From assembly GCF_030384885.1 (NCBI RefSeq), contig NZ_CP128613.1: a stretch of 64,000 nucleotides of DNA. One strand, written 5' to 3'. The stretch is from Escherichia coli (GTDB taxonomy: Bacteria > Pseudomonadota > Gammaproteobacteria > Enterobacterales > Enterobacteriaceae). The notes under the pieces were generated by a model that saw only the letters and a list, made by a program, of their open reading frames with translations, ran no database searches and was not told the DNA's origin. Below, piece by piece: positions 58,147 to 58,182 of this stretch (positions are counted from its first letter, which is position 1; each line of letters starts with the position of its first letter). The translations under genes and the position numbers were made by a program.

Positions 58147-58182
58147 GCCGCTGCGAAAATCGAATCCCGCAGCGGCCTCTTT
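58147..58182. terminator. Strong hairpin (GGCCGCTGCG-loop-CGCAGCGGCC) flanked by T-runs on both strands; probable terminator of the minus-strand cargo operon
   Basis: 10-bp perfect GC-rich stem; downstream of the 309-aa gene on the minus strand. Confidence 0.5.

Follow-up and report, generated by a model that had tools for sequence, protein, structure and literature searches.

The GC-rich hairpin that separates hipA from the minus-strand genes of a filamentous prophage in the analysed stretch of Escherichia coli DNA (64 kb, hereafter the window) is very probably the stem-loop at the apex of attP(+), the forked-hairpin attachment site of a CUS-1/Ypfphi-type filamentous phage. As far as sequence comparison and structure prediction go, this assignment is strongly supported by the anatomy of the site, its predicted fold, the integration junctions, conservation, identity with Ypfphi and the parallel with CTXphi. 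The first-pass annotation had offered two roles for the hairpin, transcription termination and participation in the folded single-stranded attP used by Xer-dependent phages. The second is borne out by the two inverted dif-like sites flanking the hairpin, by a junction topology that corresponds to XerC-catalysed single-strand integration, and by the presence of the identical sequence at a Ypfphi junction. An attP hairpin at dif is a real but ordinary feature: it belongs to a described class of structures and to a described phage family, and therefore constitutes known biology.

The stem consists of ten perfect base pairs formed by GGCCGCTGCG (58146-58155) and CGCAGCGGCC (58168-58177), as read from the window sequence, and reaches 11 bp when the A58145/T58178 pair is counted; it encloses a loop of 12 nt, AAAATCGAATCC (58156-58167). 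The perfect GC-rich 10-bp stem originally placed at 58147-58182 was confirmed, its coordinates being right within a base or two. The T-runs reported on both strands are present, but they are short: TCTTT on the plus strand and TTTT on the minus strand. RNA folds of 57 nt at the hairpin yielded -30.5 kcal/mol for the plus strand and -30.0 kcal/mol for the minus strand (z-scores of -6.5 and -6.2), a stability reached by none of 200 shuffled sequences, and the DNA stem-loop alone (32 nt) gave -13.5 kcal/mol (z = -5.2). Perfect inverted repeats of at least 10 bp with a loop of 3-20 nt were detected at eight places in the 64-kb window, compared to about one per composition-preserving shuffle, and the hairpin is the GC-richest of the eight (9/10 GC). 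An Rfam search over the hairpin returned no family at threshold, and only chance hits below it (ar35, Ms_IGR-8 and mir-2110).

The GC hairpin forms the top of a larger structure, an imperfect palindrome of 93 nt (58113-58205). A repeat search identified arms of 24 nt (58132-58155 and 58168-58191) with 88% complementarity, and folding of the region 58100-58200 stretches the pairing to approximately 58113-58205 (-47.4 kcal/mol as RNA, z = -7.1). The palindrome is composed of two dif-like sites in inverted orientation: attP1 on the plus strand (58113-58144), GGTGCGCATAA-TGTCAACGCG-TTATGTTGAAA, and attP2 on the minus strand (58205-58179), GGTTCGCACAA-TGACG-TTATGCTAAAG. For comparison, the dif site of E. 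coli is GGTGCGCATAA TGTATA TTATGTTAAAT. The gap of 34 nt between attP1 and attP2 is filled by the GC stem-loop (Table 1). The AAA end of the XerD-like arm of attP1 is the "T-run" of the minus strand, and the T-runs and A-runs beside the stem correspond to the outer ends of the two putative XerD-binding arms. In all variants collected, the central regions measure 10-11 nt (attP1) and 5 nt (attP2), neither being 6 bp long, and TGT follows the XerC arm in 16 of 16 complete variants as it does in dif.

The same inverted-site layout was found at the junction between two tandem prophage copies in the relative Res13-Lact-PEB17-18 (L003:17687-17779), which represents the free-phage form. As single-stranded DNA, this form (L003:17680-17785) is predicted to fold with -33.5 kcal/mol (z = -8.2) and a 5-nt bulge. 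Across the 8.6-kb phage unit, attP is the most stable 100-nt single-stranded window, at -30 to -31.5 kcal/mol compared to a mean of -7.9 kcal/mol (sd 3.9).

Table 1. Features of the dif-proximal prophage end in the window, and loci of insertion sequences carrying part of the site.
Feature	Coordinates	Strand	Basis or remark
hipB, upstream of hipA	~56448-56714		
hipA, chromosomal gene directly left of dif	56714-58036	+	ORF list; NZ_CP062855.1 annotation
XerC-binding arm GGTGCGCATAA of hybrid attL	58113-58123	+	Same in host dif and phage copy; also at tandem junction L003:17687
attP1 central region TGTCAACGCG	58124-58133	+	10 nt vs 6 in dif; opens with TGT as dif TGTATA does
attP1 XerD-like arm TTATGTTGAAA	58134-58144	+	9/11 identical to dif arm TTATGTTAAAT
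Apical GC stem-loop	58146-58177	.	Sequence, folds, inverted-repeat search, 37 variants
attP2, inverted dif-like site	58179-58205	-	Sequence, folds, variant alignment
attP2 XerC-like arm GGTTCGCACAA	58205-58195	-	
attP2 central region TGACG	58194-58190	-	5 nt
attP2 XerD-like arm TTATGCTAAAG	58189-58179	-	
Cargo gene, 309 aa, AbiJ N-terminal domain 4 (AbiJ_NTD4) + DUF7014, STM4504/CBY_0614 family	58211-59140	-	Pfam, PADLOC, NCBIfam
140-aa phage gene	59224-59646	-	No family match
60-aa phage gene	59735-59917	-	No family match
Filamentous-phage core genes	60087-64000	+	Pfam; L003 annotation
Replication protein pII	60087-61139	+	
ssDNA-binding pV	61151-61468	+	
IS loci carrying the segment	L005:3946-6784; L006:5950-8745; L008:2930-5713; L012:2951-5997; L009:2951-4610		

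The surroundings had been described as a dif junction, a minus-strand cargo region and a prophage, and this description proved correct. On the chromosomal side, hipB and hipA are preceded by a gene of the ECSE_1600 autotransporter family. On the phage side, the first gene encodes a candidate abortive-infection or defence protein of 309 aa, with a weak match to the PADLOC candidate PDC-S32. This gene lies in a swappable cassette (~58209-59223): comparison with prophages bearing other cargo placed the homology breakpoints at 58207/58208, 2-3 nt outside the XerC arm of attP2, and at 59224, which coincides with the stop codon of the 140-aa gene; the phage cassette ends either there or at 59662. 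In sister prophages the same slot is occupied by a PD-(D/E)XK gene with a DUF6953 gene, by a Doc-family toxin gene or by small genes of the ECs_2282 type. The hairpin/attP segment is unchanged whether the adjoining cargo is AbiJ-like, PD-(D/E)XK, Doc or small ORFs.

The 140-aa and 60-aa minus-strand genes occupy the position of rstR in CTXphi. Between them, a perfect 10-bp inverted repeat, AACGTGCAGT / ACTGCACGTT, with a 9-nt spacer was observed (59689-59717), which may serve the regulatory module as an operator or as an internal terminator. The plus-strand core genes, similar to those of phages IKe, PEar and I2-2 and of the Ff phages, encode, beyond pII and pV, coat proteins, the attachment protein pIII, a DUF5455 protein and the start of a Zot-like assembly protein pI, and the prophage continues past the end of the window.

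The left boundary of the prophage was located by comparison with complete E. coli genomes. The hipA side is matched by 5363 of 5426 genomes, and in most of them homology to the window ends at 58126, inside GGTGCGCATAATGT, a sequence common to dif and the phage; the hairpin does lie just inside the prophage boundary, as the first-pass annotation had stated. A search across the window for dif with up to three mismatches found no such site. With a hybrid at the left junction and the right end beyond the window, attR was taken from relatives. The closest genome, NZ_CP062855.1 (99.1% identical over 7 kb), carries two tandem copies of the prophage with a unit of ~8.6 kb. The copy-to-copy junction holds a complete attP, whose XerC arm, of phage origin, does not differ from the dif arm, and the array closes with a perfect 28-bp dif, GGTGCGCATAATGTATATTATGTTAAAT, followed by the normal chromosomal flank. 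Read from these junctions, attL in the window would be a hybrid retaining both phage sites, and attR, seen in close relatives only, would be an intact dif.

Tandem two-copy arrays at dif were identified at L001 (NGF1) and at L003 and L004 (both Res13-Lact-PEB17-18), while UM146 carries a single prophage copy. At L004, the last genes of the distal copy are partly lost. The annotation of the complete phage unit in L003 and in L034 contains no integrase gene.

The packaged strand of Inoviridae has the sense of the phage genes, and the orientation of the junctions agrees with this. In the present case it would be the plus strand of the window, in which attP1 is predicted to pair with the inverted attP2. 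The fold would provide one duplex XerC arm, a central region with a 5-nt bulge in the top strand, and one duplex XerD arm, closed at the top by the 10-bp GC stem and its 12-nt loop. [quoted passage not shown] Such an exchange would leave, at the left end of the lysogen, the host XerC arm joined to the phage central region, the XerD arm, the hairpin and attP2, and, at the right end, the phage XerC arm joined to the central region and XerD arm of dif, so that an intact dif would be re-formed beyond the window. The GC stem presumably acts as a clamp that nucleates and holds the single-stranded fold. Because neither double-stranded site contains a 6-bp central region, attP should be masked in double-stranded prophage DNA, where the structure would have no role in recombination.

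The forked-hairpin attP(+) of CTXphi is the model for integrative elements of the CTX type (CTX-type IMEX; Val et al. 2005, as reviewed in PMC3089051 and PMC4246890). Its central regions measure 12 bp and 5-7 bp and its spacer ~90 bp (PMC4246890, PMC3089051, PMC4266046). In the CTXphi sequence NC_015209, the left junction consists of a XerC arm, AGTGCGCATTA, a 12-nt central region, TGTGGCGCGGCA, and a XerD arm, TTATGTTGAGG, followed by a spacer and the inverted site; the sequence at the right end, AGTGCGTATTA TGTATG TTATGTTAAAT, is dif1. As single-stranded DNA, the CTXphi site is predicted to form a duplex XerC arm, 1-2 paired bases, a 5-nt bulge in the top strand, three further pairs, a XerD duplex and an apical spacer. 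The comparison with CTXphi that the first reading had recommended showed that the two sites agree in layout and in the geometry of the predicted fold, down to the 5-nt bulge.

The two systems have in common a pair of inverted dif-like sites with central regions of the wrong length (10 and 5 nt in the window; 12 and 5-7 in CTXphi), bases beside the XerC arm that match the host dif, a hybrid attL, an intact dif as attR, the lack of an integrase, tandem arrays, and a site located between the last late gene and a minus-strand regulatory/cargo module. They differ in the spacer, which is a single 34-nt GC stem-loop in the window and a branched structure of ~90 nt in CTXphi, without sequence similarity between the two. 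In contrast to CTXphi, the phage studied here has a host in the Enterobacterales and core genes that are IKe/Ff-like and not CTX-like, and its variable cargo lies beside attL, whereas ctxAB of CTXphi lies beside attR.

Ypfphi and CUS-1phi have been classed as CTX-type elements (PMC4246890, PMC3089051), and for Ypfphi an inverted pair of XerC/XerD sites, an intact dif at the 3' end and tandem arrays have been described (PMC4266046). Between the start of the XerD arm and the end of attP2, the junction of Ypfphi in Yersinia pestis (L028) does not differ from the window, and the gene order, the integration site at dif and the tandem arrays of Ypfphi and of CUS-1 (from E. coli O18:K1:H7) are those of the present prophage and its close relatives. 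The central region of attP1 differs, being TGTCAACGCG in the window and TGTACGACTCG in Ypfphi, and the replication gene of the window is only ~78% identical to that of L028. The ORFs adjacent to attL differ between Ypfphi and CUS-1 (PMC4266046), and the prophage in the window differs from both in carrying the AbiJ-NTD4/DUF7014 gene at this position.

Conservation of the site was analyzed at several levels. The segment is carried by 939 of the 5426 E. coli genomes, approximately one in six, and the search located 1472 places in total. A pattern scan of one genome per species detected the complete site in Y. pestis, Rosenbergiella, Lelliottia and Kluyvera. The pattern of two collection scans, the metagenome scan among them, was TTTANNNATAACG, which fits only the L007-type variant, the window's own variant being TTTAGCATAACG. 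In an alignment of 22 variants, 93.9% of the cells in the proposed structure are paired, compared to 29-53% in slid registers, and compensatory changes occur at three pairs. Beyond the invariant TGT, the central region of attP1 is hypervariable in the alignment.

The stem itself was examined in 31 distinct phage-borne variants pooled from all scans, among them a scan of viral contigs that left the stem unconstrained. All keep GGCCGCTGCG/CGCAGCGGCC save for rare exceptions, which are single transitions to a G.T wobble or loss of the closing pair, while ~18 different loop sequences are found. Covariation within the 10-bp stem was sought across 37 variants and was found once, in an IS-borne copy (L008, C-G to A-T); this single case is attributable to the stem being too conserved. 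Hard mismatches in the stem were present in two IS-borne copies, and in IS copies only. The near-invariance of the stem sequence could reflect a sequence-specific partner instead of a clamp.

The complete site was also detected in two metagenome bins, L027 (a Candidatus Nanosynbacter MAG) and L031 (a Ruminococcaceae MAG). In both, the E. coli hipA-dif flank, CTGGATTCTCCCTTGGTTTATGTT, is fused to attP, and the contigs look like Enterobacteriaceae contamination of the bins.

The alternative with the best prospects, although we rate it at somewhat below even chances, is a bidirectional intrinsic terminator, which might exist instead of or besides the attP function and is compatible with it. On the minus strand, such a terminator would end the regulator/cargo transcript 34 nt past the stop codon of the cargo gene, and on the plus strand it would stop read-through from hipBA or, in tandem arrays and in the free phage, late phage transcripts. 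The strong RNA hairpins on both strands (-30.5 and -30.0 kcal/mol), with UUUUC (minus strand) or UCUUU (plus strand) after the stem, are consistent with this function, and so is their location in a convergent intergenic gap, in the lysogen and the circular phage alike. The minus-strand cargo gene ends within ~10 nt of attP2 in most contexts, and the IS-borne copy L008 retains pairing through its compensatory change. With its GC-rich stem, upstream A-run and downstream T-run between convergent genes, the site resembles rho-independent bidirectional terminators; it differs from them in T-runs only 4 long, in the 12-nt loop on the plus strand and in A/T runs that are due to the XerD arms.

A consensus terminator scan called the site on neither strand. 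The tails following the stem, UUUUCAAC and UCUUUAGC, contain 4 U in 8 and fall under the threshold of the scan, which misses the site because only four T are present in the 8-nt tail window and, on the plus strand, because of the 12-nt loop. Since the flanking A/T runs are accounted for as ends of XerD-binding arms, no other explanation is needed for them. Two further observations argue against termination: hard stem mismatches occur in two IS-borne copies, and in L002 the segment sits upstream of plus-strand cargo genes. Termination is possibly a role secondary to that of attP.

It is quite unlikely that the hairpin serves as the packaging (morphogenetic) signal or the minus-strand replication origin of the phage, in the manner of hairpins A-C of Ff. 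Such a function would agree with its being the most stable single-stranded structure of the phage unit and with its position in a non-coding interval that separates the late genes from the regulatory module. However, XerC and XerD sites can be recognised in the arms, and the chemistry of the junctions is that expected of recombination. The packaging signal of Ff lies directly after gene IV; in the L003 unit, the hairpin is found ~770 nt after the gene IV homologue, away from the Ff-type position. Another long, nearly perfect hairpin (L003 ~16905-16970, -27 kcal/mol) directly follows this secretin homologue, and the existence of this better-placed structure makes the packaging reading of the dif-proximal hairpin improbable.

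The hairpin at L003:16905-16970, located outside the window in a 99%-identical relative, was found to be the second most stable single-stranded structure of the phage. It is likely to be a packaging signal and/or a terminator.

The attP1 XerD-arm/GC-hairpin/attP2 segment (58135-58206 of the window, ~70 bp) was also observed at ~490 plasmid and several chromosomal places in E. coli outside the prophage. There it lies just inside one terminal (right) inverted repeat of an element of ~2.8 kb or more, which encodes a 465-aa transposase annotated as "ISNCY family" and a passenger: a Shedu nuclease, SIR2, an STM4504 homologue or small ORFs. At its opposite end, the IS stops 5 bp from a XerC arm, which belongs either to dif or to a Xer site on a plasmid, and a 5-bp target duplication was seen in two of four IS copies examined. 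In the IS copies, the XerC arm and central region of attP1 have given way to the IS repeat, stem mismatches are more frequent than in phages, and one copy shows a compensatory change. A fragmentary plasmid copy (L002:6001-6071) lies beside a TIR-domain gene, with no complete IS seen. A hairpin-forming motif of ~33 bp, CGCGAAGCGGTTCGGGGTTCTGTnACACCCGnAC, marks the transposase-side edge of the IS cargo (L008:3076-3110 and 4028-4062; L005:5076-5108); in L008 two copies flank the cassette as direct repeats, one on either side of the Shedu gene.

Targeting of Xer sites, 5-bp duplications and a passenger gene have been described for the ISAba32 subgroup of the IS1202 family, comprising the ISKpn21-like transporter IS (tIS) (bioRxiv 10.1101/2022.12.17.520857; PMC10132070). 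The segment-bearing copies end, duplicate their target and carry a passenger in the way described for this subgroup, although such an IS is an element of another kind than a phage attP hairpin. The words "hairpin" and "phage" are absent from both papers, and an internal phage-type half attP in the IS appears to be undescribed in them. A simple targeted insertion of the IS beside attP1, attP2 or attR was considered and rejected, as it does not give the observed order of segments.

The number of these copies, each placed inside the terminal inverted repeat, raises the question of whether the segment belongs in the first place to the functional right end of ISKpn21-like IS and was merely acquired by the phage. 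We consider this very unlikely. The IS copies do not contain the XerC arm and central region of attP1, and are therefore truncated versions of the phage site, whereas complete sites occur in phages of several genera (Yersinia, Rosenbergiella, Lelliottia and Kluyvera). The architecture is also common to CTXphi, which is unrelated in sequence, and hard stem mismatches are confined to IS copies. A chance palindrome or a chromosomal REP-type repeat, which the commonness of GC-rich palindromes between E. coli genes and the eight inverted repeats of the window might have suggested, was ruled out by the absence of the hairpin from prophage-free dif regions, its conservation with the phage across genera and fold z-scores of -5 to -8.

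The attP of a CUS-1/Ypfphi-type phage thus being the preferred reading, the persistence of the segment inside insertion sequences, where integration of single-stranded DNA is not expected and where one copy has preserved its pairing through a compensatory change, is a hint of a further function. We advance, as a speculation with rather low odds, that the segment is a shared docking point for defence cassettes moving in Enterobacteriaceae between dif-integrating filamentous phages and dif-targeting tIS of the IS1202 family. The variable cassette starts 2-5 nt outside the XerC arm of attP2 in both the phage and the IS, and the cassettes seen contain AbiJ-like, SIR2, Shedu, TIR, PD-(D/E)XK, Doc or ECs_2282-type genes. 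In the IS, attP2 stands on one side of the cassette and the targeted dif or plasmid Xer site, in inverse orientation, on the other, an arrangement reminiscent of the dif modules of Acinetobacter. If this idea is true, Xer sites and hairpin would be part of a cassette-exchange system that goes beyond a phage integration device.

The value of the finding lies in annotation. It defines the exact left boundary of a filamentous prophage integrated at dif, together with its probable integration chemistry, and accounts for a conspicuous palindrome that would otherwise pass for a terminator. In addition, it portrays the terminus region beside dif as a busy landing pad, to which phages of the CUS-1/Ypf type and ISKpn21-like tIS deliver candidate anti-phage genes. 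The ~70-bp Xer-site/hairpin segment common to dif phages and tIS may merit a dedicated study.
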